Positions 14,681 through 50,605 of a stretch of 64,000 nucleotides of DNA are shown here, piece after piece. Numbering within the stretch: position 1 is the first letter of the stretch; every line of letters begins with the position of its first letter. Under the pieces are notes generated by a model. It ran no database searches. It was not told where the DNA came from and saw only the letters and a list, made by a program, of their open reading frames with translations. Source of the stretch: Candidatus Omnitrophota bacterium (GTDB lineage Bacteria; Omnitrophota; Gorgyraeia; Gygaellales; UBA12090); contig JAUSCZ010000007.1 of NCBI GenBank assembly GCA_030674475.1, forward strand, positions 669 to 64,668, read 5' to 3'. A program made the position numbers and the translations under genes.

Positions 14681-15898
14681 ATGCGGGAGCTGTTAGAAGG
14701 ATCCCTCGCTGTAGCTGAGGCGATAAAATTATGCAAACCGGGGGTGATTTCTGCTTACCCGATTACCCCGCAAACCCATATCGTGGAGGAGTTAGCGGCA
14801 ATAGTCGCCAACGGAAAGCTCAAGGCTGAGTTTGTGAATGTGGAATCAGAACATTCCGCGGCCAGCGTGGTTTTAGGCGCCTCCGCGGCCGGGGTACGTT
14901 CTTTTACCGCTACCAGCTCTCAGGGGCTTCTGCTTATGTTAGAGGTAGTCTTTAATATCTCCGGGATGCGCTTTCCGGTAGTAATGACCTGTGCTAATAG
15001 GTCAATTTCCGCTCCTTTAAACATCTGGAATGACCATCAGGACGCCATTACGGTGCGCGATTCCGGATGGGTGCAGTTACACGCGGAGAATGTTCAGGAG
15101 GCCATTGATTTACATATCCAGGCCTACCGGATTGCCGAAGATCCTAAGATAATGCTCCCGGTGATGGTGAATATGGATGGCTTTATCCTTACCCACGGTT
15201 TAGAGGTGGTAGAGCTTCCAAGTCAGGATCAGGTGGATAGTTTTCTGCCCGCGTATAAAGCTTTATATAAATTAGATGTGAATAATCCGCTGACCTTTGG
15301 GCCCTTGGTTGATCCGGATTATTATATGGAGGCCCGCTTTGCCGTTCATCAAACCCTTAAAGATGTTTTAAAGCTTATTCCAGCGGTAAAAGAGGAATTT
15401 CAAAAAATATTCGGCCGCGCCTCCGGCGGTTTGGTTGAGGGGTATAGATTAGATGATGCCGAAAAAGTGATTGTGGCTATGGGTTCGGTCTGTGGCACGA
15501 TTAAGGATGTAATAGACGCCTTAAGGGAGAAGGGCAAGAAAGTAGGCTTACTTAAGATTATTACTTATCGGCCTTTGCCTATTGATGAGATATATCAGGC
15601 CTTAAAAAATGTGCCCCGGGTGGCGGTATTAGAGAAGGCGGTGTCTTTGGGTTCTTATAGCCCTTTACTGAGCGAAATCCGCGCGGTATTTAGCGGTAAA
15701 AAGAAATCTCCAGTGATCAGCGGTTTTGTTATCGGACTGGGAGGAAGGGATATTACCATTGATTCCATCAAAGAGGTATACAAAAGATTAAGCGCTAAAA
15801 CCATAAGCGAAGAATATATTGATTTAAAGCCAGAGTTATTAGACCCTTCTTTTAAGGATGGGAAGGTCTATCCTTCTGGATTAGAGGAAAGCGTATGA
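14681..15898 (+). CDS. porA: Pyruvate:ferredoxin oxidoreductase alpha subunit
   Basis: [32 protein letters not shown] is typical of PorA/VorA; 405 aa. Confidence 0.85.
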
Positions 15899-17934
15899 CC
15901 ACTCCAGCCGCGGAACATCTTTTTTGCGCCGGACACACCGCTTGCGCCGGATGCGGCCAGGCGGTTGCCGCCAGATTAGTCATAGATATTGCCGGAAAAA
16001 ACACTATGATTGCCAATAATACCGGTTGTCTGGAGGTTTTCTCCACCAAATATCCGGAATCATCCTGGGGAGTTCCCTGGATACATTCCTTATTTGAGAA
16101 TGCCGCGGCAGTGGCCTCCGGCATTGAGGCGGCCTTAAAGCATCTGGGAGTCAAGGATAAGATAAACGTCATCTGCCAGGCCGGCGACGGCGGGACCGCG
16201 GATATCGGCTTGCAGGCCCTTTCCGGAATGTGGGAAAGAGGCCACGACATTCTCTCTATCTGTTATGATAATGAAGCGTACATGAATTGTTTAAGCCTCT
16301 CAGCCTTGATTTTAACCGCGGATGGGCTTAAGAAAATAACTGAGGTAAGGGTCGGCGACGGGATTTATGCCTTCGACCAGAATACCCAGCACTTAGTGAT
16401 TAAAAAATGCAGCGGTATCTTTGATAACGGCAAAAAAGAGGTATTTGAATTGCAAACTCACCACCATTCCATAAAGGCAACCGCGAATCATCCTTTTCTG
16501 GTTTTAAAAAGAAACGGCAGAGGGCGGTCAAATTCTTTGGTCTGGAAGACGCTTGAGAATGTCAAAATCGGTGATCAGGTAATATCTTTAAAAGGGATGA
16601 ACGGCGCCTGCCGGTCGTTTAAATTCAATGAGATAAATAAAGTAAAAAAAGGCGATTATAAGGTTAATAAGCTTAATGAAGTAAATTTGCCCCGGGAATC
16701 CAGTCCCGAGTTGATGAAATACCTGGGGATATTTGTCGGTGACGGCTGGAGAAGGGCAGGCCGGGCTGAGATAGGATTTGCCCTGCCCAAAGGCAAAAAA
16801 GCCAGAGAGGTTCTGGTTGGCCTGCATAAAGAAATATTTTCTAGTCCCGTATCCCAGGATGAAAACTATCTTTCAATTTACTCGGTTAACTTAACTAAAT
16901 TTATAGATACATTGGGGTTGGGACAGGGGGCGAAGAATAAAACCATCCCCGGCTGGATATTCACCCTTCCCAAGGAAGAGAAAGAAGCGTTTGTTGAGGG
17001 CCTGATGCTGGCTGACGGGTATGATCATCAAGGGAGCAAAAGATATGTCTCGGCAAGTTTTGAGCTCCTGAAACGGATGCGCTTATTGCTCCAGACGCTT
17101 AATTACCGGGTGGGAAAGATTCATACCCAAACCAAGAAAAAAGGCACTAAATGCGTAAATAGGAACTTATTGGCAGATTCAGAATATGGGTATATCTGTT
17201 TTAGCCGGAAAAAACAACGGGATATGGAAAAATATCCTTCACAATGCCGGTATCAGGATTTCCTGATGGAGAATGAATTTTTTCAGACCGAAGAAATTAT
17301 CAGTGTAGAGTCTAAAGGCATAGAACCGACCCTGGATTTGCGGGTAGAGGATGAGCATAATTTTATCGCTGACGGCATTGTGGTGCATAATACCGGTGTT
17401 CAGCGCAGCGGATTGACCCCTTTTGAAACCAGCACCTCTACTACTCCGATAGGCAGTCAATCCGCGGGCAATCCCCGGCCCAAGAAGCCGATGCCGGAGA
17501 TTGCCGTGGCTCACGGTTTGGCTTATGTGGCTACAGCTTCGGTGGGCTACTTAAGAGATATAGAGAATAAGGTTAAAAAGGCCATAGCCATTAAGGGCCC
17601 GAAATATCTCCAGATTCACGTTCCCTGCCCTTTGGGCTGGAGGCATGAGTCTCAATTTACTTATGATATCGCTAAGCTCGCGGTGGAAACCGGGCTTTAC
17701 CCTTTAATAGAATATGAAAACGGAAAACTGACCAACGCGCGTAAATTAGCCAAGATTAAGCCGGTTGAGGAATATTTAAAATGTCAGGGAAGATTTAAAC
17801 ATATTATCAGCTCGCCTGAGTTAATTAAACAGATACAGGCGGTGGCGGATAAAAATATTGAGAGATACGGCCTGAGAGCGGAGCAAACCGTTCCACAACC
17901 GCCTCAAGCCGTAAACGCTCAACCAAAAGTCTAA
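15895..17934 (+). CDS. porB: Pyruvate:ferredoxin oxidoreductase beta subunit (TPP-binding), interrupted by an in-frame intein; mature extein ~311 aa
   Basis: Extein N-part ...[12 protein letters not shown]...GDGG...CYDNEAYMN and C-part [11 protein letters not shown]... match PorB. The 679-aa ORF is ~370 aa longer than normal PorB. Confidence 0.85.
16288..17391 (+). mobile_element. Intein (368 aa) with LAGLIDADG homing-endonuclease domain inserted in porB between YMN and TGVQRSG
   Basis: Begins with Cys ([14 protein letters not shown]...). Ends with ...IVVHN followed by extein Thr. Internal LAGLIDADG motifs [10 protein letters not shown] and [11 protein letters not shown]. The insertion splits the conserved PorB block YMN|TGxQRS. 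Confidence 0.75.
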
Positions 17935-17959: not shown

Positions 17960-18142
17960 ATGAAGGTAAGTGTTGATGTTTCAACTTGTGTGGGATGCGG
18001 TTTATGCGAGCAGGGTTGTCCGGAGGTTTTCCAGGTGCAGGGAGACGGCCTGGCCCATGTGCTCGGCTCTAACTGCGCGGCAAATCACAATATAAAAGAG
18101 GTAGCCGAGAGTTGTCCGGTAAGCTGTATTAAGGTTGAATAA
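17960..18142 (+). CDS. Small [4Fe-4S]/[3Fe-4S] ferredoxin
   Basis: 60 aa, CVGCGLCEQGCP...C; likely electron acceptor for PFOR. Confidence 0.7.
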   Translation: MKVSVDVSTCVGCGLCEQGCPEVFQVQGDGLAHVLGSNCAANHNIKEVAESCPVSCIKVE

Positions 18143-18171
18143 GACTTAATAAAAAGTATTTTTAGCTGTTG

Positions 18172-18208
18172 ATGGCGGTTCGCGTTACGCGGGCCGCCAT
18201 TTTTGTTC
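18172..18208 (+). terminator. Rho-independent terminator (GC hairpin ATGGCGGTTCGCGttacGCGGGCCGCCAT + TTTTGTTCTT), copy 1 of a repeated terminator family
   Basis: Stem-loop plus T-run seen directly. The same hairpin core recurs at 21284, 24708, 25757 and 29091. Confidence 0.7.
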
Positions 18209-18282
18209 TTAGCCCTTTTATTCCAGGTGGCACAGGCATCCTTGCCTGTGTGTACACTGTCCTCTTATTAAAAATCTCTGTA

Positions 18283-18326
18283 ATCAAGTTCTTTCCTATC
18301 GCTGCAAACTCGGGAAAGAACTTTAT
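18283..18326. promoter_or_regulatory. Inverted-repeat operator-like site AATCAAGTTCTTTCC-N15-GGGAAAGAACTT (degenerate right arm)
   Basis: Near-identical to the perfect 16-bp inverted repeat at 24928..24974. Sits ~90 bp upstream of the 18412 promoter. Confidence 0.45.
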
Positions 18327-18339
18327 TTTTCCTTTTTTT

Positions 18340-18440
18340 ACCCCGCCTTTTCCGTTTCCCGACGACAATCCCGCCCCAGGAAAGCGCTTTCCCAAAAACC
18401 CGGTTTGGCCCTTGTTTTGGGTATTTTTTTGTGGTATATA
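18340..18440 (+). promoter_or_regulatory. Conserved ~70-bp block (TTTTACCCCGCC...CCGGTTTGGCCC) plus extended -10 promoter (TTGTTT-17-TGgTATATA), copy 1 of 3
   Basis: The block is >85% identical to 21375..21447 and 25845..25918. The -35/-10 spacing is appropriate for driving the 18488 gene. Confidence 0.55.
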
Positions 18441-18487
18441 TTAGTTAGAATTATGAATAACCCCACAAATATAAGGAGGACAAGCAA

Positions 18488-19216
18488 ATGAAGAGGATAA
18501 AAACTTTAGATTGTTTTTTAATATTTCTGGTGTTTAGTCTTGGTTTGTTTCGAAATTCTTTTGCTGGCACGGAGGAGGGTAGTTGTGGCGCGGATAAGAA
18601 TTGTGTGAAGATTTCAACAAAAGATATTGAATTCAGGTATAGAGCATTAGGGGAAGAGCCGTTTTTTAAGGAAGAAGTCAGTAAATTCACTCGTGAATCT
18701 GCGGGTGTATATTCAACATCTGAGAGTATTGAGCTTAAGGATGGGGAAAGGATGATTGACCATTTCTTTGGACTTACTTCTTTGGAAAGCAGTTGGCCCG
18801 GTGAAATGAGCTTCTTATTCTATCGCGATAATCGCGGCCTGGCGAGTCTTGTCTCGGAAGTTACCTCTTCCGAACCTACATTTGATGAGGATGGGCGTTT
18901 GAGTAAATTGGTAATTAAAGGAACTGATTTATCCGGAGATAAGATTACAATTACCAGGACGGGTTTCAAATATGATACTAACGGAAGAATAAGATCTTAC
19001 GGAGTAACACATTTCTATCCGGATGGAGGGTTGTCAGGTTCCCAAACATCGCTAGGCATATCAGAAATTACTTATAGCAAAGAAGGAAGAATAAAACAGT
19101 TTGTTTATTCATATCAGGGGTACGGAGGTTCTGCTGCGAAGAAAAAGGTGTATAATATAAAATATAATATGTATGGGGATGTAATCTCTTGTCTTAGAAA
19201 TGATGTTGTCTCCTGA
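18488..19216 (+). CDS. Secreted hypothetical protein (signal peptide MKRIKTLDCFLIFLVFSLGLFRNSFAG)
   Basis: 242 aa with a signal peptide and no recognised domain. Its 3' end abuts an out-of-frame remnant of the paralog-family C-terminus. Confidence 0.55.
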   Translation: MKRIKTLDCFLIFLVFSLGLFRNSFAGTEEGSCGADKNCVKISTKDIEFRYRALGEEPFFKEEVSKFTRESAGVYSTSESIELKDGERMIDHFFGLTSLESSWPGEMSFLFYRDNRGLASLVSEVTSSEPTFDEDGRLSKLVIKGTDLSGDKITITRTGFKYDTNGRIRSYGVTHFYPDGGLSGSQTSLGISEITYSKEGRIKQFVYSYQGYGGSAAKKKVYNIKYNMYGDVISCLRNDVVS

Positions 19217-19380
19217 TAGAATATTGGAGGAAAAGCAGGATGACCTCTTAGTCTGTCTGGCCGAGATCTACCGCCTGGCTGAGGATGAGAACTTAGAAAC
19301 CAGCCCGGAACTGCGGGAGTCCCTGGTGATTGTAGACACCGGCAAATTCGTCCTCTTGCCCAACAGTTAGAATGTGGTTT
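19200..19380 (+). pseudogene. Orphan C-terminal fragment of the large secreted paralog family (...EEKQDDLLVCLAEIYRLAEDENLETSPELRESLVIVDTGKFVLLPNS*)
   Basis: ~90% nucleotide identity to 24005..24130 and 28170..28300. Out of frame relative to the 18488 ORF. The final KVGLN* codons are displaced to 19450..19467 by an inserted hairpin element. Confidence 0.7.
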
Positions 19381-19633: not shown

Positions 19634-19924
19634 ATGCAGAAGAAAACAATTATAAAGATATTGGAAAGGGTTAAGGATTTTTCCCGGCAAAAGTATAAGG
19701 TGGAGATTAAGGGTATATTCGGCTCTTATGTAAGACAGGAGGCTAAAAGAAACAGCGATATAGATATCCTGGTGGATTTTTATAAGGATGCCGATTTATT
19801 AGATCTGTCCGGGTTATCTTTATTCCTGGAGAAAGAATTGAAGCGCAGGGTAGATGTTGTTCCTCTGTCTTCCCTAAGGAAAGAGATACGCCCGAATGTC
19901 TTAAGAGAGGCAATCTATCTATGA
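19634..19924 (+). CDS. Nucleotidyltransferase-domain antitoxin (MNT/MntA of HepT-MNT type II/VII TA system)
   Basis: GIFGSYVRQEAKRNSDIDILVDF is the minimal nucleotidyltransferase motif (GS...DxD). Confidence 0.7.
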   Translation: MQKKTIIKILERVKDFSRQKYKVEIKGIFGSYVRQEAKRNSDIDILVDFYKDADLLDLSGLSLFLEKELKRRVDVVPLSSLRKEIRPNVLREAIYL

Positions 19925-20268
19925 GGAATCATTCTTTGTATCTAAAAGATATAATAGAGGCACTGGATGCGATAGAAGAATTCGCGGAGGGCCTGGAATT
20001 TGAAGAATTCCGTAAAGATGACAAAACTTCCAGCGCGGTAATCAGGAAGTTTGAAATTATAGGAGAAGCATCCAAGAATATTTCAGCTAGCATAAGACGG
20101 AAATATCAGCAGGTGCCTTGGAAAGAGATGGCTGGTATGCGGGATAAACTGATTCACTTTTATTTTGGCGTAAATTATGAGCTTGTGTGGCAGACCATAA
20201 AACACAGGATTCCTCAAATAAGACCTCTTCTTAAAGAAATCCTCAAGGATACTCTTCGTTACACCTAA
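19921..20268 (+). CDS. HepT/DUF86 toxin (HEPN-family RNase partner of MNT)
   Basis: 115 aa, overlaps mnt by 4 nt (ATGA). DUF86-like, with an R(x)4HxY-type motif (MRDKLIHFY). Confidence 0.65.
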   Translation: MRNHSLYLKDIIEALDAIEEFAEGLEFEEFRKDDKTSSAVIRKFEIIGEASKNISASIRRKYQQVPWKEMAGMRDKLIHFYFGVNYELVWQTIKHRIPQIRPLLKEILKDTLRYT

Positions 20269-20530
20269 CTTAATTATGCGGCAATAAGTTAAAATATTTT
20301 ACCAAGAGACAGCATACAAAACTCGTACACGAGGGTAAATATGTCGCGGAAGTTGAGGTGGAGATTCTTGATACCGGAGATGGCTGGTCGCCGTATCTTT
20401 CTCTTGAAGATGCCCAAAAGATAGATGAGGTAAGAGAAGCTTTGCGAGAAGGCGCCCTTCAGCGAGCAACGAAGATTGCCCGTGTATTCAATCTTACCCC
20501 GGTAGCAGTATAATTAAAAATATTATTCTT

Positions 20531-20577
20531 AGGGACGGTTCTGTTTTGGATTAGAGGATCGTCCCGTTTTTATTTTC
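20531..20577 (+). terminator. Hairpin GGGACGGTTCTGTTTTGGATTAGAGGATCGTCCC + GTTTTTATTTT (TAGGGAC...GTCCC palindrome family), putative terminator
   Basis: Seen directly; a homologous copy lies at 21221..21256. Confidence 0.5.
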
Positions 20578-20582
20578 CTGGC

Positions 20583-20611
20583 TTGACAAGGAATGATGTA
20601 TAAGTTATACT
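20583..20611 (+). promoter_or_regulatory. Near-consensus sigma70-type promoter TTGACA-17-TATACT for the AbrB/RelE-like operon
   Basis: gcTTGACAaggaatgatgtataagtTATACT, ~55 nt upstream of the 20669 start. Confidence 0.6.
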
Positions 20612-20668
20612 TTGGATATAAGTAAGTAAGGAAGTAAGGAAATAAGAGAGTAAGGAGGATAAAACATA

Positions 20669-20932
20669 ATGACTATAGTGGATACCGCAAAGATTACCTC
20701 AAAAGGCCAGATTACTATTCCTAACCGGATTAGGAAGATTTTGCATCTTAGCGAAGGTTCATCTTTGGCTTTCGGAGTAGGCCGGGAAGGAGTTTTATTG
20801 ATGCCGTGCAAGGTTACGGCTGACTCGGTATATACCGAGCAGGAATGGGTTAAGATTGAGAAACTGGCCGCTGTCAAGGGTAAGGTTTATAAGAGTTCAA
20901 AGGCCGCCAAAAAACATATCCAAGGGCTATGA
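20669..20932 (+). CDS. AbrB/MazE/SpoVT-family antitoxin
   Basis: MTIVDTAKITSKGQITIPNRIRKILHLSEGSSLAF is a swapped-hairpin AbrB-type DNA-binding N-terminus. Confidence 0.7.
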   Translation: MTIVDTAKITSKGQITIPNRIRKILHLSEGSSLAFGVGREGVLLMPCKVTADSVYTEQEWVKIEKLAAVKGKVYKSSKAAKKHIQGL

Positions 20933-21207
20933 GGTTTGAATTTAAGCCTTCCTTTGACCGGTCAATTAAGGCCTTTCCGGAAAGAGAAAAGCAGGAGTTA
21001 AAGGATGCCGCTTGCCGATTGATAGATGCCTTATCCGGACAAGAGTTAATCCCTAAAGGTATGGGTTTGAAGAAGCTTAGAGGAAATTTCTGGGAGATGC
21101 GCAAAGGTTTAAAGACCAGGATACTTTTTAGGCGCGAGAAAGATTGGCTTGAGTTTATCCTGGCCGGAGATCACAACGATATCAAACGTTTCCTGAGAAG
21201 GGCTTGA
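20929..21207 (+). CDS. RelE/ParE-superfamily toxin (partner of the AbrB-type antitoxin)
   Basis: 92 aa, overlaps the antitoxin by 4 nt. Paralogous to 28777..29070. Confidence 0.6.
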   Translation: MRFEFKPSFDRSIKAFPEREKQELKDAACRLIDALSGQELIPKGMGLKKLRGNFWEMRKGLKTRILFRREKDWLEFILAGDHNDIKRFLRRA

Positions 21208-21283: not shown

Positions 21284-21322
21284 ATGGCGGTCCGCACTAC
21301 CCGGGCCGCCATTTTTATTTTT
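21284..21322 (+). terminator. Rho-independent terminator ATGGCGGTCCGCactacCCGGGCCGCCAT + TTTTATTTTT (copy 2)
   Basis: Hairpin plus T-run immediately downstream of the RelE-like gene. Confidence 0.75.
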
Positions 21323-21374
21323 AACCCGCCCTATTCTTCGGCAATAGCCGTTTTGCGCTTATTTTTTCTCTTTT

Positions 21375-21475
21375 TTACCCCGCTTTTTCAGTTTCCCGAC
21401 GACAACCCCGCCCCAGGAAAGCGCTTTCTCAAAAACCCGGTTTGGCCCTTGAAACGGGTAAATCCTATGGTATAC
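21375..21475 (+). promoter_or_regulatory. Conserved ~70-bp block plus promoter TTGAAA-16-TGgTATACT (copy 2) driving paralog A
   Basis: -35 at 21448..21453 and extended -10 at 21467..21475. The block is >90% identical to copy 3. Confidence 0.6.
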
Positions 21476-21819
21476 TTTAGGCAAAAGATGGCCAACCCAA
21501 AAGATAACCCGGATAAAATCCCGGTAGCGCGCTGTGACAGTAATCAAGCCCTCTCCTTATTGGGAGAGGGTGGGGTGAGGGAATACATAAACCAATTAGT
21601 TCCCCCTCATCCTAACCTTCTCCCGCAGGGGGAGAAGGAAGTAATTGGCAATAACTGTCACAATCAGACTGTGTCGCAATCTCTTAAAATGACCATTTTG
21701 TCATTCTGAGGGAGCAGGGCGACCGAAGAATCTCGTCGTTAATTTAAAAGACGAGATCCTTCGCTAGCGCTCAGGATGACATTATGACACAGTCTGAATG
21801 CAAGAGAAAGGACTTTGTG

Positions 21820-24153
21820 ATGTTTAAAAAACTGATTTCTATTCTTTTGTCTTTTACTTTTATCACCACTCAGCCTGTATTCGCCCAAGGAGTGGCCCAG
21901 CTGAATATGGCCCAATACCTGGGTTCAATGCCGGCTGTTGCGGCAGACCGGTTCCGTCCTTTGCATATGCGCTATTTCTCCTATGATATAGAGAAAGATA
22001 ACTTCCAGCTACTCTTAGATAAAGGAGACAATAAGGATATAAAGGAAGTTGAACTTCAGGAAAAGACCAAGGTTCTGATGGAGTATTTCCAAATTGGCTT
22101 AGCCCTGCCTAATGATAAGTTCTGGGTAAACCTAAGGCCGGATGCCCAAGACCAGATCATTGATCCGGAATTAGAGCAGACTGATTTAGGCAAGATAATG
22201 TTAGAGGCAGACTTGCAGTTAAAGAAGGATACCGCCAGCTTTACCTCACCCCAGACCACAGAAGGCAGACAATACTGGGATAAGCTCTATAAGAAGGCCG
22301 GAGAATTATTCGGCACCGAAAACATCACTATCCCCACCATCACCCGTCCCTGGATAGTCCCGGGCGAGATAATCCTAAGGCAAGGAGAGGATTCAGCCTA
22401 TATCTTTAAGGCCAATATGAAGGTGATGTTAGAGCATGATTATTTGGTCAGTAGGGGCGGGTCGCGAACCGCCCCTACGTATCAACAATACGCCTTTTCC
22501 GACCCCCGGATGAAGGAGTTAAACGAATATTCCACCCAACTTATCAGAGAGCTGATTATCCCCAAGCTGACCAAAGAGGTAAACACCTCCAAAAGATACG
22601 CCGCTCTTCGGCAGGTATTCTTTTCTCTGGTAATGGCCAGATGGTTTAAGGACACTTTCACTGGAAAGCCCGGCCAATATGCCAGCCTGATCGACAGCCA
22701 CAACCTCAACAATCTCACCTCCAAAGAGGCCTGGAGCAAAACCTTCTACTTCAACGAATACAAGAAGTCCTTTGAACAAGGCGAATACAACCTTAAGGAG
22801 AATATCGGCACCCCTTATGGGCAAATAATCAGGAGCTATGTCAGCGGGGGCATCGTAGGCAGTAGTAGCGCAATGACTCAGCATACATACCATAATGGTA
22901 AAAATAATGATGGAAACCCAAAACATCTCGTTGCTGCTATTATTAAACGTGATAAGCGGTTCGGGAATAAAACTGGAAATCTTTATGTTACAATGCACAC
23001 AAATAATGAAATAGTTAAAATGGAAGTAAATAATTCAGGAATGGGCGAAGTAGAGATTATTCCAAAATCAAAAGATTTTAATACGGATAATAAAAAAGGC
23101 TCTTCGCCGATGGAGGCAGGGCAGAAAGATATGGATTCTTTTTCTCTTGAACAGATAGAAGAAATGCGAAAGCTTGAACAAAGATTGTGGGTTATAGTTA
23201 AGGACATTGAAAAGATACTTGATGAAGTGGAATTAAGTAAGCTCCAGAACAAGGGTGAAATTGAGATTACGAATGATGGCTTTAAAGGTATTCATAGAAT
23301 GTTAGCCTATTTAAAGACTCTTACCCGGGAGGGTACAAGAATAGAAATAAATAATGGAGCAATAGATGGAATCGCGGATATGTTTTCTATAATAGGCTTA
23401 GTAGATATTCTGCCGGAAGGATATGAGGTGCGATCAGGACCAAGATTATTAACATTAAGGGGTAGTATTTCTGAGTTAAAACAGCTTCAGGAAGATTGGG
23501 AAAAGTGGGAGGTTAACCCGGAGAATGTGGTAAAAAGAATCGTAGCTCAGATTGGCTCTGCGTCTGAGGAAGATATAAAACTTATTGTAAAAACTTTTCG
23601 GGAAGAGATTAACCGCAACCCTACCGTAGAAGAGGCGGGAGAAATCCTCGGTGATGCTTTTGTGAGTCCTAAAGGTGATGGCGTAAAGGAAATGGCAGGG
23701 GAAAAGATAGCGGAGCTGAAGCAAAAAGCTTCCTCGTCGGCAATGAAATCAAGCAAAATTCCCGAAAATACCGGCGGTATTGATTTCCGTGCCATGAACT
23801 ATATGGTTCAGCCGATGGGGAGTTTTAAGGATTTGCGGTTTGGCCTGCCTACGCTGACCAGCAGCGCGTTAGAGAGGATTGACTTGGATCAGGAGTTAGA
23901 CTCCCTGCGCAATATGGTCAAGGCCGGGCTCGTGCCTTCGGGAGAGAGGGTCAAGGAATACTTAGCCGCCTGCTTTCAGAAAGGTAAGATTGAAGAAAGG
24001 CAGGATGACCTCTTAGTTTGTCTGGCCGAGATCTACCGCCTGGCCGAGGAGGAGAATTTAGAAACCAGCCCGGAACTGCGGGAGTCCCTGGTGATTGTAG
24101 ACACCGGCAAATTCGTCCTCTTGCCTAACAACCAAAAGGTGGGGCTGAATTAA
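21820..24153 (+). CDS. Large secreted protein, paralog A (777 aa; signal peptide MFKKLISILLSFTFITTQPVFAQG; conserved N- and C-terminal domains, divergent centre)
   Basis: N-terminal ~360 aa and C-terminal ~130 aa are near-identical at nucleotide level to paralog B. No known domain recognised. RBS AAAGGA precedes the ATG at 21820, so the ORF-track start at 21784 is probably upstream of the real start. Confidence 0.7.
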   Translation: MFKKLISILLSFTFITTQPVFAQGVAQLNMAQYLGSMPAVAADRFRPLHMRYFSYDIEKDNFQLLLDKGDNKDIKEVELQEKTKVLMEYFQIGLALPNDKFWVNLRPDAQDQIIDPELEQTDLGKIMLEADLQLKKDTASFTSPQTTEGRQYWDKLYKKAGELFGTENITIPTITRPWIVPGEIILRQGEDSAYIFKANMKVMLEHDYLVSRGGSRTAPTYQQYAFSDPRMKELNEYSTQLIRELIIPKLTKEVNTSKRYAALRQVFFSLVMARWFKDTFTGKPGQYASLIDSHNLNNLTSKEAWSKTFYFNEYKKSFEQGEYNLKENIGTPYGQIIRSYVSGGIVGSSSAMTQHTYHNGKNNDGNPKHLVAAIIKRDKRFGNKTGNLYVTMHTNNEIVKMEVNNSGMGEVEIIPKSKDFNTDNKKGSSPMEAGQKDMDSFSLEQIEEMRKLEQRLWVIVKDIEKILDEVELSKLQNKGEIEITNDGFKGIHRMLAYLKTLTREGTRIEINNGAIDGIADMFSIIGLVDILPEGYEVRSGPRLLTLRGSISELKQLQEDWEKWEVNPENVVKRIVAQIGSASEEDIKLIVKTFREEINRNPTVEEAGEILGDAFVSPKGDGVKEMAGEKIAELKQKASSSAMKSSKIPENTGGIDFRAMNYMVQPMGSFKDLRFGLPTLTSSALERIDLDQELDSLRNMVKAGLVPSGERVKEYLAACFQKGKIEERQDDLLVCLAEIYRLAEEENLETSPELRESLVIVDTGKFVLLPNNQKVGLN

Positions 24154-24169: not shown

Positions 24170-24382
24170 TCAGGCAGGCTGCAGATTAACTAACTCTATG
24201 CTGGGTTGCTTGTGTTTTAAGAGGTATTTTTTGGCGTCGAGTATTTCAATTCCCACTACTGAGCCATCGGGAGCGTAATTTACGGCAATATCTTCGGTGA
24301 GCCTCTGAGTAGTAACCTGAAAACGGCCTTCTTTCAACCGTATATAGGCCGCGTCAACTTTTGGATCATAGATTATTTTCAT
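24170..24382 (-). CDS. DUF2283-family small protein (antitoxin-like partner of DUF4258)
   Basis: MKIIYDPKVDAAYIRLKEG...VGIEILDAKKYL is the typical DUF2283 pattern. Confidence 0.6.
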   Translation of the reverse strand: MKIIYDPKVDAAYIRLKEGRFQVTTQRLTEDIAVNYAPDGSVVGIEILDAKKYLLKHKQPSIELVNLQPA

Positions 24383-24450: not shown

Positions 24451-24707
24451 TGGTTTCTCCTGATAGTTTAATTATAGCAACAATTTAGGTTAAGGCAACC
24501 CAAAAATAAATATTATCACTCGTGTCCAAATTAGACCATGAATACCGACGACAAAGCAGTTTTAAGATTCCAAAACTGTCATGCCCGCGAAGGCGGGCAT
24601 CCAGACTCTTGAGTCAATTGCGGATTCCCGACAAAAGATTTTGGGAATGATACTGTAACAGCTAATTTGGACAGCAATGAAATATTATAATGAATTTTTT
24701 AGTTGTT

Positions 24708-24748
24708 GATGACGGTCTGGATTACTCGGGCCGCCATTTTTATTTTTG
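24708..24748 (+). terminator. Degenerate copy of the GGCGG..CGGGCCGCC terminator hairpin + TTTTTATTTTT
   Basis: gacggtctggattaCTCGGGCCGCCATTTTTATTTTT; the left arm is eroded. Confidence 0.4.
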
Positions 24749-24927
24749 AAGCTTTCCCGATTTTGTAGCAAGCCTTTTCTGTAACGCAGTATTCATCATC
24801 GGTTTAAGATAAAATTTTGCGCGCTGGGCTAAACTTTACAGGAAAGCTTCTGATTATGGCGATTAAATACAGATTCCAGAGATTTATTACCGACGTAAAA
24901 TCGCTGTAATCTTTTAAAAATCTCTGT

Positions 24928-24974
24928 AATCAAGTTCTTTCCCTTTTGCTGCAAACTTGGGAAAGAACTTGATT
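24928..24974. promoter_or_regulatory. Perfect 16-bp inverted repeat AATCAAGTTCTTTCCC-N15-GGGAAAGAACTTGATT (operator-like site) abutting a promoter
   Basis: Seen directly, 6 bp upstream of the -35 TTGATT. Preceded by tandem CTGTAATC motifs. Confidence 0.55.
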
Positions 24975-24980
24975 AAAAGA

Positions 24981-25009
24981 TTGATTAGCGTTACGGGTAT
25001 GCTATAATT
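24981..25009 (+). promoter_or_regulatory. Consensus-like promoter TTGATT-17-TATAAT for the PIN-domain gene
   Basis: TTGATTagcgttacgggtatgcTATAAT, ~10 nt upstream of the ATG at 25017. The leader is very short. Confidence 0.55.
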
Positions 25010-25016
25010 ATATTAT

Positions 25017-25484
25017 ATGCATAAACCCAAGTTATATTTGGATACAACTATACCCAGCTATGTGTTTAATAGCCATGTTCCCGATAAACAAACAGCTGCC
25101 CGGAAACTCTTTGAATACATTGATAAAGAGAAGGCGGAAGCCTATATCTCTACGGTTGTAGTCCGCGAGCTTAGTAAAACTGGAGAGGACTATCTGAAAG
25201 ATAGGTTGTTTGCTCTAATAAAAGATATGACGGTTCTAGAGGTTACTCAGGAGTGCGTAGAGCTTGCCGGTGAGTATATTCAAAGAGGAATCATACCTAA
25301 AGAAAATATAGATGATGCCTTGCATATTGCCTGCGCGAGCGTTTACGAGATTGATTTTCTAGTCAGCTATAATTTTGAACATATTGTTCGGATAAAAACT
25401 ATTGATAATGTGTCGGCAATAAACGTATTATTGGGATTTAAAACACCGCGTATCATCATTCCCGAGGAGGTAATTGATGTTTAA
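25017..25484 (+). CDS. PIN-domain protein (VapC-like putative RNase toxin)
   Basis: LYLDTTIPSY..., DALHIACASVYEIDFLVSYNFEHI: acidic residues positioned as in the PIN fold. 155 aa. Confidence 0.5.
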   Translation: MHKPKLYLDTTIPSYVFNSHVPDKQTAARKLFEYIDKEKAEAYISTVVVRELSKTGEDYLKDRLFALIKDMTVLEVTQECVELAGEYIQRGIIPKENIDDALHIACASVYEIDFLVSYNFEHIVRIKTIDNVSAINVLLGFKTPRIIIPEEVIDV

Positions 25485-25674
25485 GATGTCTGAACTTAAC
25501 CCGAAAGACAAGACCCTTGATGAAATTCACAATATCCAGAAAGAAATCTATGATGAAGACAAGGGGATAACTGTTAAAGATTTGTTAGAAAGATATAACT
25601 CAAGCGTCAGGAAAGTTGCTCAAGAATATAAGATTAATCTCAAAGTGGTTTCTTCCAAAGAAATCCATATCTAA
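25474..25674 (+). CDS. Small hypothetical protein overlapping the PIN gene (possible cognate partner)
   Basis: 66-aa ORF with an 11-nt overlap to the PIN gene; no recognised motif. Confidence 0.35.
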   Translation: MMFKMSELNPKDKTLDEIHNIQKEIYDEDKGITVKDLLERYNSSVRKVAQEYKINLKVVSSKEIHI

Positions 25675-25756
25675 AACTTCGATCTGCTTTAGCAGTGTAG
25701 TCTTATCCCGGTAGCAGTATAAATTCAATCATTAGCATACAGAAAAAGTATGGGAT

Positions 25757-25795
25757 GGCGGTCCGCACTACCCGGGCCGCCATTTTTATTTTTAA
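25757..25795 (+). terminator. Rho-independent terminator ATGGCGGTCCGCactacCCGGGCCGCCAT + TTTTATTTTT (copy 3)
   Basis: Identical to the 21284 copy. Confidence 0.75.
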
Positions 25796-25844
25796 CCCGC
25801 CCTATTCTTCGGCAATCGCCGTTTTTCGCTTATTTTTTCCTTTT

Positions 25845-25946
25845 TTTACCCCGCCTTTTCTGTCTTCCGACGACAATCCCTTCCCAGGAAAGCGCTTTCT
25901 CAAAAACCCGCCTTGGCCATTGAAACGGGTAAATTCTGTGGTATAC
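25845..25946 (+). promoter_or_regulatory. Conserved ~70-bp block plus promoter TTGAAA-16-TGgTATACT (copy 3) driving paralog B
   Basis: -35 at 25919..25924 and extended -10 at 25938..25946. Only a ~60-nt leader to the RBS GGGGGA. Confidence 0.6.
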
Positions 25947-26009
25947 TTTAGGCAAAAGATGGCCAACCCAAAAGATAAACCAAATAAAGTTCAAGTAGGG
26001 GGATATAAA

Positions 26010-28325
26010 ATGTTTAAAAAACTGATCTCTATTCTTTTGTCTTTTACTTTTATCACCACCCAGCCCGTATTCGCCCAAGGCGTAGCCCAGCTGAATATGG
26101 CCCAATACCTGGGTTCAATGCCGGCTGTTGCGGCAGACCGGTTCCGTCCTCTGCATATGCGCTATTTATCTTACGATGCGGCTACTGATAATTTCCAGCT
26201 TCTTTTAGATAAAGGGGATGATCAGGATATTAAGGTAGGGAACGGTCGCGACCGTTCCCTACAGGAAAAGACCAAGGTCCTGATGGAGTATTTCCAGATA
26301 GGATTAGCCCTGCCTAATGACAAGTTCTGGGTAAACCTAAGGCCGGATGCCGAAGACCAGATAATTGACCCGGAGTTAGAAAAGACCGATATGGGTAAGA
26401 TAATGCTGGAGTCAGACCTGCAGTTAAAGAAGGATACTGCCGGCTTCACCTCACCCCAGACCACAGAAGGCAGACAATACTGGGATAAGCTTTATAAGAA
26501 AGCCGGAGAACTCTTCGGCACCGAAAACATCACCATCCCCACCATCACCCGTCCCTGGATAGTCCCGGGTGAGATAATCCTAAGGCAAGGCGAAGACTCG
26601 GCCTATATCTTCAAGGCCAATATGAAGGTGATGCTGGAGCATGACTACTTAAGCTCTCAGCCTTCAGCTCTCAGCTCTCAGCAATATAATTTCAAAGACC
26701 CCCGGATGAAAGAGTTGAACGAATACTCCAGCCAACTGATTAGAGAGTTGATTATCCCTAAATTAACCAAAGAGGTAAACACCTCTAAAAGATACGCCGC
26801 CTTAAGACAGGTATTCTTTTCCTTAGTCATGGCCCGCTGGTTTAAGGATACTTTCAGCGGCAAACCTGGCCAATACTCCCAGTTGATTGACAGCCACAAC
26901 CTCAACAACCTCACCTCCAAGGAGGCCTGGTCCAAGACAACCTACTTCAACGAATACAAGAAGTCCTTTGAAAAAGGCGAATACAACCTTAAGGAAGACA
27001 TCTCCACCCCTACCGGCCAGGTGATCAGGAGTTATGTCAGCGGGGGGATTACTGGTTCAAGCAGCGCAATGGGTAAGAATATAACCCATAATAATGGAGA
27101 GCACCCTCTTGATGTTGTTAATATTTTTTATAAAATGCCGAAAGGACATAACTCCGGAAATCTTTTTCTTGTGAAATCCATAGGCGATAAAACAATAGTA
27201 GAAATAGTCTCCTCAAATTCTCCGGAACGCCCAGGCAAAGAAAATATTATAAAGAATGAAGCAAGGGCCGGCTCAGCGCTGATGGAGGCAAAGCCTGCGG
27301 AATTTTTCTCTTTTGAAGAAAGCGAGGAGTTAAGAAAGAATCTTGAACAGAATATGTGGGTAAGGGTGGAGGATATTAAAACAATACTTTCTAACGCCTT
27401 GAATAGCATAGATGTTAATAATGACGCTTTTCCGAATATTCGTAAAGATATTAATAGTATTTTAATGTATTTAAATATTTTTAACAATAGGGATGCAAGA
27501 ATAAAAGGAAAAGATATAGATGAGATTGTGGAAATTCTTTACAAAAAAGGCACCTCCAGCGAGAAGTCCTTGTTTGATATTCTTCCGAAAGGATATAAGG
27601 TATGGTCGGGAGGGCGATCTGTAACATTAAGTGGCAGTGTTTCAGAATTAAGACGGTTCCAGGAAGCTTGGGAAAAGCTAGAAATTGATGCGGAGGCTGT
27701 AGTAAAGAGAATCGTAGGGCAAACGGGTGCTGCGAGTGAGAAATATGTAAAATATATTGTGGAAAGATTCCGGGAAAAGATTGACCGTAACCCTACTATG
27801 CAAGAGACAGGAGAAATTATAGGCTACGTTATTCAGAATCATAAAGGAAATGAGAGCCTGCCGGAAATAGTAGATGAAAAGATAGCGGAGATTATGGCTT
27901 CTTCCTCGATGGAGACAATTTCTAAGTCTGTTCCTAAAAACGCCGGTGGTATTGATTTCCGGACTATGAACTATCTGGTCCAGCCGATGGGGAGTTTTAA
28001 GGATTTGCGGTTTGGCTTGCCTACTTTAACCAGCAGCGCGTTAGAGAGGATTGACCTGGATAAGGAATTAGACTCCCTGCGCGATATGGTCAAGGCCGGG
28101 ATGGTGCCTTCGGGGATGCGGGTCAAGGAATACCTGGCCGCCTGCTTCCAGAAAGGTAAGATTGAGGAAAAGCAGGATGACCTCTTAGTCTGTCTGGCCG
28201 AGATCTACCGCCTGGCTGAGGAGGAGAACTTAGAAACCAGCCCGGAACTGCGGGAGTCCCTGGTAATTGTAGACACCGGTAAATTCGTCCTCATGCCTAA
28301 CAACCAAAAGGTGGGGCTGAGTTAA
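26010..28325 (+). CDS. Large secreted protein, paralog B (771 aa; same signal peptide and conserved termini as paralog A)
   Basis: Nucleotide-level near-identity to paralog A over ~26010..27070 and ~27950..28325, with the centre ~40% aa identity. The ORF-track start at 25755 is a read-through of the upstream module. Confidence 0.7.
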   Translation: MFKKLISILLSFTFITTQPVFAQGVAQLNMAQYLGSMPAVAADRFRPLHMRYLSYDAATDNFQLLLDKGDDQDIKVGNGRDRSLQEKTKVLMEYFQIGLALPNDKFWVNLRPDAEDQIIDPELEKTDMGKIMLESDLQLKKDTAGFTSPQTTEGRQYWDKLYKKAGELFGTENITIPTITRPWIVPGEIILRQGEDSAYIFKANMKVMLEHDYLSSQPSALSSQQYNFKDPRMKELNEYSSQLIRELIIPKLTKEVNTSKRYAALRQVFFSLVMARWFKDTFSGKPGQYSQLIDSHNLNNLTSKEAWSKTTYFNEYKKSFEKGEYNLKEDISTPTGQVIRSYVSGGITGSSSAMGKNITHNNGEHPLDVVNIFYKMPKGHNSGNLFLVKSIGDKTIVEIVSSNSPERPGKENIIKNEARAGSALMEAKPAEFFSFEESEELRKNLEQNMWVRVEDIKTILSNALNSIDVNNDAFPNIRKDINSILMYLNIFNNRDARIKGKDIDEIVEILYKKGTSSEKSLFDILPKGYKVWSGGRSVTLSGSVSELRRFQEAWEKLEIDAEAVVKRIVGQTGAASEKYVKYIVERFREKIDRNPTMQETGEIIGYVIQNHKGNESLPEIVDEKIAEIMASSSMETISKSVPKNAGGIDFRTMNYLVQPMGSFKDLRFGLPTLTSSALERIDLDKELDSLRDMVKAGMVPSGMRVKEYLAACFQKGKIEEKQDDLLVCLAEIYRLAEEENLETSPELRESLVIVDTGKFVLMPNNQKVGLS

Positions 28326-28488
28326 GCGGATTTCTCGCTGAAAGTCATTCTTCAGGGTGGTTCTCTAAGAGAGAACCACCCTGTTTTTATTTGGTAATTG
28401 ACAAAGCTGTATTGTATGCTATACTTATATGTAGAAATGCAGTAATGCGGATAATTATTGTTAGATAACAAGGAGGATATTGTTATGA

Positions 28489-28787
28489 TTGGCATGAAGA
28501 ATATGGCTGTGGTTTCTGAAAGAGGCACGGTTACCATCCCTAATGCTGTAAGAAGGACCGCGCGCATCCGCCCCGGAGACTTGCTTGAGTTCAAGCCGCA
28601 GGGCGATAGCGTGATCTTAAGACATATGATAGTCAGAGGCGCCGGAGAAGGGGACTTTTTGAGCGATAATGAATGGATGGAATTTGATAAGCTGGTAAAT
28701 AAACAGTTAAAAGAAGGCGCGTATAAGAGCTATGGGGACATAAAACAGGCTAAATCGCATTCCCGCAGGCTGATGCGTGGCGCGTGA
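28489..28787 (+). CDS. AbrB/MazE-family antitoxin (second copy)
   Basis: MIGMKNMAVVSERGTVTIPNAVRRTARIRPGDLLEF parallels the 20669 gene. Confidence 0.65.
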
Positions 28788-29070
28788 AATAGCCGTGGTT
28801 ATAAATTATCTTAGTTCCTACGACCGCTCTTTTAAGAAGCTGGATGTCCCGGCCCAAAGAAAAACCGTATCGGCTATAAATAATTTTCTCTCTTTCTTAG
28901 GCAGCCGTCAGAAACCCGAAGGCTTGGGTCTGAAAAAGATTTATAAAAATTATTGGGAGATTCGGATAAATATTCGTAACCGGATAATCTTTCAGTTAGA
29001 AGGCGGGGTTATAAATATTTCCTTTGTCGGCGACCACAATGCCGTCAGGGTGTTTATAAGAAAACCTTAA
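28777..29070 (+). CDS. RelE/ParE-superfamily toxin (second copy, paralog of 20929..21207)
   Basis: Shares LKKL/IYKNYWEIR...ILF...GDHN motifs with the first copy. Confidence 0.6.
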   Translation: MAREIAVVINYLSSYDRSFKKLDVPAQRKTVSAINNFLSFLGSRQKPEGLGLKKIYKNYWEIRINIRNRIIFQLEGGVINISFVGDHNAVRVFIRKP

Positions 29071-29090
29071 ACCCGGAATTTGCAATAGTA

Positions 29091-29126
29091 ATGGTGGTTT
29101 GGATTACGCGGGCCGCCATTTTTATT
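29091..29126 (+). terminator. Terminator hairpin ATGGTGGTTTGGATTACGCGGGCCGCCAT + TTTTATT between convergent genes
   Basis: Fifth member of the GGCGG..CGGGCCGCC hairpin family. Sits where the RelE-like gene (+) and ppiD (-) converge. Confidence 0.55.
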
Positions 29127-31989: not shown

Positions 31990-32093
31990 ATTTGCCACGG
32001 GGATACTATACAGCTTGCTTGAGGGATAACCGGGCTTTCTAAAAAGAAATAAACTTATAGAAAAGCCTGAGTAATAGTAATGTCGCAGCCTAA

Positions 32094-32269
32094 TATACTG
32101 TAACATTAATTTTAGATGTTACAGTATATTAGGGGGGCGTGGGGGAGACCGTCCCCCACGATTGGGGGGTGCTCAGCGAACATAGTGAGCGCCGAAGGGG
32201 GGCTTGCCCCCCTAGCGGAAGTGCGACGGAACATTCCTATAATTATTAAGAATTTATGTTACGGAGCAC
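32094..32269 (+). repeat. ~175-bp GC-rich structured repeat element, copy 1 (flanking inverted-repeat hairpin, core GGGGGAGACCGTCCCCC...GGGGGGCTTGCCCCCC, tail ...TTTATGTTACGGAGCACT)
   Basis: The core ~95 bp is ~97% identical to 50425..50520. The 3' tail supplies the in-frame ATG used by the TPR ORF. Confidence 0.7.
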
Positions 32270-33272
32270 TAGGGTGGTCAGGTTTTTAATCTGGTTTTTT
32301 GTAACAGCGTGCGTTCTATCCTTGTCAGGCCGTTTATGGAATAAGGCGCTTAATGTATCTGAAGGCGCCGTTGGATTCGGCGGCTTGAAAGAAAAATCCC
32401 AAACGCAGGCTCAAGCCCATTATATGATGGGCTTATTTTATGAAAACCAGAATAAATTTGATGAGGCAATTGCCGAGTATAAACAAACCCTGGCCTTAGA
32501 AAAAGATATCCCGGCGCCGCGGGTGCGCATCGCCGCGAATCTTATCCGCAAAAACGATTTTCCTAACGCGCTCATAGAACTTCAGGAGGCAAAAAAGCTT
32601 GACCCTGATAATATAGAAACCGGGCTGCTTTTAACCCTCCTGTATACCATCCAGAATTCTTCGGATAAGGCAGTCCAGGAATATGAGGATGTTTTGAAAA
32701 AGGCCTCAAGCGCTGACCCTAAGAATGTTGATATCCTTAAGACCTTGGCCGGCTTGTATTATCAGCAGAAGAAATTCCCGGAGGCGAGTAACCTTTATAA
32801 GCTCGTCCTGGATATTGATAAAAATGATTATGAATCGGTATTTTTGCTGGGGGCTCTTTTAGAGGAGAGCGGTAAAAGAGACGAGGCAGTAGAGAAATTT
32901 AAAGAGGTTTTAAAGCTCAAGCCGGATTACGCTAACGCCCTGAATTCTTTAGGCTATCTCTATGCTGAGGATGGCCGCCAGCTTAACGAGGCTGAGGAGT
33001 TAATCAAAAAAGCCATTTTGATTGAACCGGATAACGGGGCTTATATTGACAGCCTGGGTTGGGTTTATTTTAGAAGAAATGAGCTGGATAAGGCGATTGA
33101 GCATTTGGAGAAAGCCAGCCTTTTGCTTTTCGACCCGCTGATATACGAACATCTTGGGGATGCCTATTTTAAAAAGGGAGCTCAGGATAAAGCCCAGGCC
33201 TCCTGGCAAAAGTCTTTAGAGCTTAATCCCGCGCAAGATAAGCTAAAAGAAAAGTTAGAGAAACTAAAATAA
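32256..33272 (+). CDS. TPR-repeat protein with N-terminal signal/TM segment
   Basis: Multiple 34-aa TPR-like repeats (AxxYxxLG...). The start codon lies inside the repeat-element tail. Confidence 0.65.
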   Translation: MLRSTRVVRFLIWFFVTACVLSLSGRLWNKALNVSEGAVGFGGLKEKSQTQAQAHYMMGLFYENQNKFDEAIAEYKQTLALEKDIPAPRVRIAANLIRKNDFPNALIELQEAKKLDPDNIETGLLLTLLYTIQNSSDKAVQEYEDVLKKASSADPKNVDILKTLAGLYYQQKKFPEASNLYKLVLDIDKNDYESVFLLGALLEESGKRDEAVEKFKEVLKLKPDYANALNSLGYLYAEDGRQLNEAEELIKKAILIEPDNGAYIDSLGWVYFRRNELDKAIEHLEKASLLLFDPLIYEHLGDAYFKKGAQDKAQASWQKSLELNPAQDKLKEKLEKLK

Positions 33273-50345: not shown

Positions 50346-50386
50346 TTTCTCGCCAAATTTAAAATAGGCTTTCCTTTCCTGTGCTA

Positions 50387-50561
50387 CTACATTGTGACAT
50401 TAGTTTATGTCACAATGTAGTAAGGGGGTGTGGGGGAGACCGTCCCCCACGATTGGGGGGTGCTCAGCGAACGAAGTGAGCGCCGAAGGGGGGCTTGCCC
50501 CCCTAGCGGAAGTGCGAAGTGACATTCATTCGATTATCAAGTATTTATGTCACGGAGCACT
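50387..50561 (+). repeat. ~175-bp GC-rich structured repeat element, copy 2 (flanking inverted repeat TACATTGTGACAT/ATGTCACAATGTA; same core as copy 1; tail ...TTTATGTCACGGAGCACT)
   Basis: Core nearly identical to 32135..32230. The tail again supplies an in-frame ATG (ORF-track start 50547) upstream of lpxI. Confidence 0.7.
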
Positions 50562-50605
50562 ATTGATGGGATAGCGCGGGGCAGGCAATCAAGGAAAGGC
50601 CAAAG

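Follow-up and report, generated by a model that had tools for sequence, protein, structure and literature searches.

Why should a terminator hairpin, a block of about 70 bp and a promoter recur together three times at a single locus of an Omnitrophota genome? The locus lies in the 64,000-nt stretch of DNA that was analyzed here (hereafter the window). A sequence-only reading had described three near-identical modules of about 250 bp, each in front of a gene for a secreted paralog, and had proposed that the block immediately upstream of the -35 is too conserved for a neutral spacer, being either an activator or UP-like site or part of a mobile promoter cassette that seeds new family members.

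The recurrence itself is real. The block core CCCAGGAAAGCGCTTTCnCAAAAACCCG is found at 18375, 21412 and 25883, always on the + strand and ahead of a promoter in three cases out of three, with 0 matches in 100 shuffles, and the terminator and promoter anatomy is borne out by the core search, by folding and by promoter matches. Near-identity over some 250 bp, however, holds only for modules 2 and 3 (91.9% across ~234 nt). Module 1 shares with these two the hairpin (45-58 nt, 83-84%) and the block with its promoter (93-119 nt, 84-94%), but in module 1 the two parts are split by an insert of ~130 nt that is present in no other module. The degenerate pieces previously placed at 24708 and 29091 do exist (24711 and 29093), but they consist of the hairpin alone, without the block. 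The features concerned are the following, in window coordinates:

17960-18142, + strand: ferredoxin gene.
18171-18208, + strand: hairpin H1 and T-run, predicted terminator 29 nt past the ferredoxin gene (-24.6 kcal/mol, z -4.5).
18209-18332, + strand: insert of module 1 only, including a 72-nt element at 18257-18327.
18333-18378, + strand: distal block of module 1, containing T-tracts, ACCCCGCC and, at 18359-18368, CCGACGACAA; not conserved outside the closest gene clade.
18379-18392, no strand: palindrome of module 1, perfect over 14 bp (GGAAAGC/GCTTTCC), putative operator centred at about -61.5 for a start site predicted 7 nt past the -10.
18393-18440, + strand: promoter region of module 1, with a 19-nt spacer, the -35 TTGTTT at 18412-18417 and a 17-nt spacer.
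18432-18433 and 18435-18440, + strand: TG and TATATA, the extended -10 of module 1.
18488-19216, + strand: gene A, 242-aa protein carrying a signal peptide; no relation to genes B and C.
19227-19366, + strand: 3' remnant of a family gene, 140 nt, out of frame, 95-96% identical to genes B and C.
21284-21322, + strand: hairpin H2 and T-run, 3' of an AbrB/RelE-like toxin-antitoxin pair (20669-21207).
21323-21415, + strand: spacer and distal block of module 2, CCGACGACAA at 21396-21405.
21416-21429, no strand: palindrome GGAAAGCGCTTTCT of module 2, centred at about -60.5 for the same predicted start site.
21430-21476, + strand: promoter region of module 2, with a 19-nt spacer and the -35 TTGAAA at 21449-21454.
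21471-21476, + strand: -10 TATACT of module 2, after a 16-nt spacer with TG.
21527-21805, no strand: nested MITE-like insertion, ~279 nt, within the 5' UTR of gene B; the orthologous L002 locus does not have it.
21820-24153, + strand: gene B, secreted family member, 777 aa (Q7J72_00695).
24711-24747, + strand: hairpin H3 and T-run, no block.
25752-25797, + strand: hairpin H4 and T-run, 3' of a PIN toxin-antitoxin pair (25017-25674).
25887-25900, no strand: palindrome GGAAAGCGCTTTCT of module 3, again centred at about -60.5 for the predicted start site.
25901-25947, + strand: promoter region of module 3, with a 19-nt spacer and the -35 TTGAAA at 25920-25925.
25942-25947, + strand: -10 TATACT of module 3, after a 16-nt spacer with TG.
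26010-28325, + strand: gene C, secreted family member, 771 aa (Q7J72_00715).
29090-29126, + strand: hairpin H5 and T-run, between a toxin-antitoxin pair and the convergent ppiD, no block.

Read from 5' to 3', each module comprises a terminator, a pyrimidine-rich stretch ending in RGAAARCGYTTTCY, 19 nt, and a sigma-70 promoter with a TG-extended -10. The 72-nt element in the insert of module 1 is 89% identical to 24904-24974 (the shared stretch extends to ~24982) and contains the inverted repeat aatcaagttctttcc-N16-ggaaagaacttgatt. In the copy at 24928-24975 this inverted repeat adjoins the -35 of the PIN toxin-antitoxin promoter (24981-25008), and the element is therefore probably a toxin-antitoxin operator; its truncated copy inside module 1 is likely a recombination scar. 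Apart from the insertion in the 5' UTR of gene B, a second small palindromic MITE-like element lies at 24555-24665, before H3.

The pattern GGCGG...CGGGCCGCCATTTTT locates five hairpins (18174, 21286, 24711, 25757 and 29093; 0 in shuffles), which have stems of 8-14 bp followed by the T-run TTTTTATTTTT and are terminator-like by prediction, with folding energies from -13.5 to -24.6 kcal/mol; a single A/C mismatch leaves H3 weaker than the rest. Four of them stand 20-78 nt past a + strand stop codon (18142, 21207, 25674 and 29070), H3 at 24711 being an orphan. An alignment of nine copies taken from the window and from relatives has 95.9% of its stem cells paired and an invariant 3' arm, and every stem change puts a C or U opposite G. 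Pairing, G-U wobbles included, is therefore kept only in the + strand RNA. With these features the hairpin looks like an intrinsic (Rho-independent) terminator, which would stop transcription arriving from the upstream gene and insulate each unit. Two other identities of the hairpin, judged by eye, were rejected: an integron attC site (the stems are perfect, there is no GTTRRRY core and no integrase among the housekeeping neighbours) and a REP or MITE element, whose defining features are absent. Hairpin and block are separable, the block being found with a different terminator or none in L001, L011 and L013a (related loci are given L numbers throughout), and the hairpin without a block in H3, H5 and the downstream hairpin of L004.

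Behind the block, module 1 carries TTGTTT-17-TGgTATATA (18412-18440), and modules 2 and 3 carry TTGAAA-16-TGgTATACT (21449-21476 and 25920-25947). The TG together with hexamers 16 or 17 nt apart identifies, on sequence, a sigma-70 promoter with an extended -10; 10 of 12 positions agree with the consensus in addition to the TG, and TTG and G-ATA are invariant across the 12 promoter sequences aligned. Neither a sigma-54 promoter nor an IHF site fits by eye. An UP element is A/T-rich between -38 and -59, with its proximal subsite at -46 to -38. The region from -46 to -38 in the modules is GGTTTGGCC, which is GC-rich and therefore does not fit an UP element, the sole A-rich stretch in the vicinity being a short CAAAAAC near -54 to -48; the UP-like interpretation had to be dropped. 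On the downstream side, an ATG is conserved 11-12 nt past the -10 (28 nt in L011) and opens a short upstream ORF or N-terminal extension of the form MxNP(K/T/N)(D/N)... (18453-18491, from 21484, and 25955-26009 in the window). This ATG shares the reading frame of the main ORF in module 3, L001 and L011. In module 1, L002, L004 and L013b it is out of frame or overlapping; the upstream ORF of module 1, MNNPTNIRRTSK followed by a stop, overlaps the ATG of gene A.

What lies behind the promoters is a secreted paralog only for modules 2 and 3, which precede genes B and C (69% identical). Module 1 departs from the earlier description in that its gene A is unrelated to either, and a search for homologs of gene A found only three near-identical ORFans. 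The 3' remnant of a family gene that follows it indicates that the body of the ancestral module 1 gene was replaced, and the unrelated ORF would have taken its place after the gene unit had been copied. Genes B and C belong to a family that is very large in Omnitrophota (more than 600 homologs found) and is laid out as a conserved N domain of ~350 aa that includes a signal peptide, followed by a variable middle and a conserved C domain of ~130 aa. The family has no Pfam match, and a Foldseek search of the PDB with an AlphaFold model of the N domain (pLDDT 78) returned nothing with E<0.2. The hypervariable middle sometimes contains enzyme-like domains (PGK, GAPDH, guanylate kinase, DnaJ, HEAT), and the C domain carries the motif GGIDFR...QPMGSF. 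Between B and C, synonymous identity is 0.81-0.90 at the ends and 0.43-0.57 in the middle, and this combination of similar ends and a divergent middle points to a mosaic or gene-conversion history.

Such a history makes it necessary to ask whether the block is anything more than a neutral by-product, that is a spacer kept similar by recent duplication or gene conversion, with the promoter hexamers as the only functional part. Inside the window and against the closest ortholog this explanation accounts for what is seen. Modules 2 and 3 are 92% identical versus 85-90% third-position identity in the first 50 downstream codons, so that module and silent sites form one continuous high-identity tract, and the 81% identity of module 1 with its L004 ortholog equals the genome-wide 4-fold identity of 82%. 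Module identity is no higher than silent-site identity, and at this depth the claim that the block is too conserved for a neutral spacer finds no support. Deeper comparisons give a different result for one part of the block. In pairs with L009 or L015, where 4-fold-site identity has fallen to 0.41-0.59 and synonymous sites are near saturation, the distal 40 nt to the left of the palindrome have decayed to random (0.20-0.33), as expected of neutral sequence, but the palindrome itself retains 0.79-0.93. The constrained core is thus the 14-bp palindrome RGAAARCGYTTTCY, with GAAA-CG-TTTC invariant in 12 of 12 aligned instances. Moreover, exactly 19 nt separate the palindrome from the -35 TTG in all 12, across three promoter spacer types, and both palindrome and spacing are also kept in L011, in another genome and context. 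This argument, which rests on about five independent lineages, sustains the conservation claim for the proximal palindrome, the spacer and the -35, not for the whole 70 bp, and renders the neutral explanation unlikely. A second motif, CCGACGAYAA, located 10 nt upstream of the palindrome, is kept within the full-block clade. Elsewhere in the 64-kb window and in ~150 kb of relatives the palindrome is absent except from sites upstream of promoters; an nhmmer profile run against the window and all relative loci recovered no further module copies, and genome and metagenome collections scanned with the block core yielded only three distinct loci.

The block might instead act at the RNA level, by forming a small RNA or structured leader or by loading Rho onto read-through transcripts (a rut site), or it might contain a short coding region. 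Its + strand is C-rich, G-poor and unstructured (z +1.3, +2.7 and -0.4), a rut-like composition, and an open frame runs through it in all three window copies. This composition is nevertheless absent from L009 and L015, which still keep the palindrome, and the block is placed between terminator and promoter. RNAalifold gave neither covariation nor a consensus structure beyond the 5-bp stem of the palindrome, and the block has no Rfam match at the gathering threshold or at E<=1 (for the window and its relatives together, Rfam matched only a tRNA). Two specific candidates were discarded: a structured RNA, since the block folds no better than shuffled sequence on either strand, and a coding block, since indels of 1, 2 and 4 nt occur in it and L004 has a stop in the frame that the ATG of the hairpin opens. 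We regard a function at the RNA level as highly improbable.

The distribution of the block across the gene family is more informative. It tracks the gene tree: the closest clade has the full block, the next two branches keep only the proximal half, and paralogs beyond these have none. The block is hence passed on together with the gene. Only the proximal half can be recognized in L009 and L015, where the N domains are ~69-78% identical to those of the full-block genes. The paralogs L008, L016 and L017 (N domains 62-66% identical to that of gene B in a protein search) have no block; their promoters are near-consensus TTGACA/TATAmT and are followed by structured leaders. The sequence-only reading had held that absence of the block from other family copies in the rest of the genome would speak against it, and for sister genomes this outcome applies in part: the block is absent from these members and complete in the closest clade. 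L011 has it in a different genome, beside CODH/ACS genes and behind a different terminator. To judge from what persists across these branches, the old, constrained core of the block is the palindrome with the promoter. In L016 (2875-2990 and 8596-8775) and L017 (2784-2925), the structured leader behind TTGACA-17-TATAmT measures 120-150 nt and closes with a terminator-like hairpin and T-run; these leaders have no Rfam match and may be riboswitches or attenuators.

Inheritance with the gene is not what would be expected of a portable promoter cassette, in which hairpin, block and promoter move independently of genes and seed or activate new ones. There are nonetheless two cases of the promoter without a family gene. 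The first is module 1, which precedes the unrelated gene A. The second is a 74-nt homolog of palindrome and promoter that L009 carries on its minus strand and that no family gene follows. There is precedent for such promoter reuse (PMC3575422). On the other hand, homology runs on into the family gene save where the 3' remnant shows replacement, the hairpin is not obligate, no terminal repeats, target duplications or transposase accompany the modules, and there are no extra copies in the 64 kb and ~150 kb examined. The two exceptions look like gene replacement or promoter reuse; such cases are so few here, and local events account for them so well, that they do not support an autonomous cassette. 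A mobile cassette that seeds family members, as proposed earlier, is thus not borne out and appears very unlikely, the block following gene phylogeny and sitting with a family gene bar these two cases. The minus-strand copy of L009 (757-540, between atpC and pyrG; 74-nt homolog at ~757-681) reads AGAAAACGCTTTCT-19-TTGTTT-16-TGgCATACT, and ~125 nt follow its promoter, ending in a strong terminator hairpin; a relic promoter and an sRNA-like transcript are both conceivable.

How the module came to be present three times is best seen by comparing the interval between ferredoxin and ppiD, which holds one copy in L004, one in L001, two in L013 and three in this window. In L004 (Hainich groundwater), whose flanks are 89.5% identical to those of the window, the order is ferredoxin, hairpin, block and promoter, one family gene, a 71-aa gene, hairpin, and ppiD on the opposite strand; H5 is the ortholog of the downstream hairpin. 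Relative to L004 the window contains ~9.5 kb extra, made up of two gene units, four toxin-antitoxin pairs, a DUF2283 gene and MITE-like insertions. L001 (Rifle WOR_2) has its single copy without the ATGGCGG-type hairpin. The second copy of L013 is preceded by a PIN toxin-antitoxin pair and the hairpin, which is precisely the arrangement of module 3, and in L002, at a different genomic site, an AbrB toxin-antitoxin pair, hairpin, block and B-like gene follow one another as in module 2. Since the hairpin forms a direct repeat flanking the single-copy unit in L004, it is a plausible substrate for unequal recombination that would change copy number. The toxin-antitoxin pairs interleaved with the gene copies (19634-21207, 24170-24382, 25017-25674 and 28458-29070, the DUF2283 gene included) are one MNT/HepT, two AbrB with RelE/YoeB-like toxins and one PIN, and the pairings of toxin-antitoxin genes, hairpin and module recur in L002 and L013.

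The neighbourhood otherwise consists of housekeeping genes. Within it, a 182-nt direct repeat with G-rich hairpins (32090-32271 and 50384-50562, 86% identical) lies just upstream of two unrelated genes, for a TPR protein and LpxI, and looks like a small dispersed element. The gene for the beta subunit of pyruvate:ferredoxin oxidoreductase (15895-17934) apparently contains an intein, and its L004 ortholog has Hint, Intein_splicing and LAGLIDADG Pfam matches.

On this evidence we consider it probable (roughly 0.7) that the modules belong natively to one clade of the secreted family as its 5' control region, multiplied together with the gene unit, and that the palindrome serves as an operator. 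The whole unit of terminator, control region and gene would have been multiplied and reshuffled between ferredoxin and ppiD, and the module would be present three times because the gene unit multiplied at this rearrangement-prone locus. The palindrome combines the two sequence properties sought in an operator: its dyad is conserved above the neutral rate, and its spacing to the promoter does not vary. A conserved dyad whose distance to the -35 is constant and in phase with the helix marks a dimeric regulator acting with RNA polymerase, and the palindrome would accordingly be a putative operator for a dimeric DNA-binding protein. This retains one half of the earlier proposal of an activator or UP-like site, in that the constrained part is best read as a regulator-binding site. 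As to the direction of control, we tentatively prefer a class-I-type activator or modulator that would touch RNA polymerase. A repressor is nearly as likely: a promoter with 10 of 12 consensus positions and a TG may not need an activator, so that repression stays plausible. Pfam found no DNA-binding regulator among the ~45 neighbouring ORFs scanned, and the Pfam list of L004 contains none.

A bolder version, to which we attach little weight, would make the interval between ferredoxin and ppiD a hot spot of hairpin-delimited cassettes combined with a portable palindrome-promoter platform under one regulator. The hairpin, with its invariant 3' arm and T-run, would recombine, and units of toxin-antitoxin pair, control region and gene would be amplified, swapped and deleted; the platform would capture unrelated sequence, such as gene A or the sRNA-like transcript in L009. 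If this were true, one regulator would govern a fast-diversifying secreted repertoire in Omnitrophota.

To our knowledge, next to nothing has been learned so far of how members of the uncultivated phylum Omnitrophota control transcription. The native control region preferred here is of an ordinary kind, and the binding motif itself is previously undescribed. It offers a testable cis-element (RGAAARCGYTTTCY, 19 nt, -35) and a promoter consensus for the phylum, along with a locus whose copy number differs among close relatives, and a shared operator would define a regulon and provide a route to the regulator. Beyond the cis-element and the locus, this is a routine case of a promoter duplicated with its gene.

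Comparison with known systems places these features as follows. As in tandem arrays with homogenized ends, the ends of B and C are similar and their middles divergent, and copy number varies among close relatives; unlike in such arrays, toxin-antitoxin pairs stand between the units, a shared terminator hairpin marks the boundaries of the units, and no recombinase is associated. Putative mobile promoters and promoter reuse have been described (PMC3575422), and the modules resemble them in that nearly the same promoter stands before non-homologous sequence (gene A and the minus strand of L009). They differ in being mostly inherited with the gene, the case of gene A being a replacement of the gene body. 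The core of the palindrome, GnAAnCGnTTnC, matches what we take to be the generic LacI-type pattern. LacI/GalR operators are even palindromes of 16-22 nt, with a central CG for 1173 of 1303 regulators (PMC4052901), and the palindrome of the modules is likewise even, with an invariant central CG. However, its core measures only 14 bp, the site does not overlap the promoter but is placed far upstream of the -35, and the genes behind the modules are not sugar genes. Local regulators of this family usually regulate themselves; among the neighbouring ORFs scanned there was no LacI or PBP-type gene, so the likeness to a LacI-family operator is only a lead. The CRP site at -61.5 of lac P1 exemplifies class I activator-dependent promoters and has the motif TGTGA-N6-TCACA. 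The motif of the modules is unrelated to this one, and their promoter, unlike lac P1, has a TG-extended -10 and may be active alone. As at class I promoters, on the other hand, the -35 is imperfect (3-4 of 6 positions), and the dyad lies near -61 relative to the predicted start, on the same helical face and at a strictly fixed distance from the -35.
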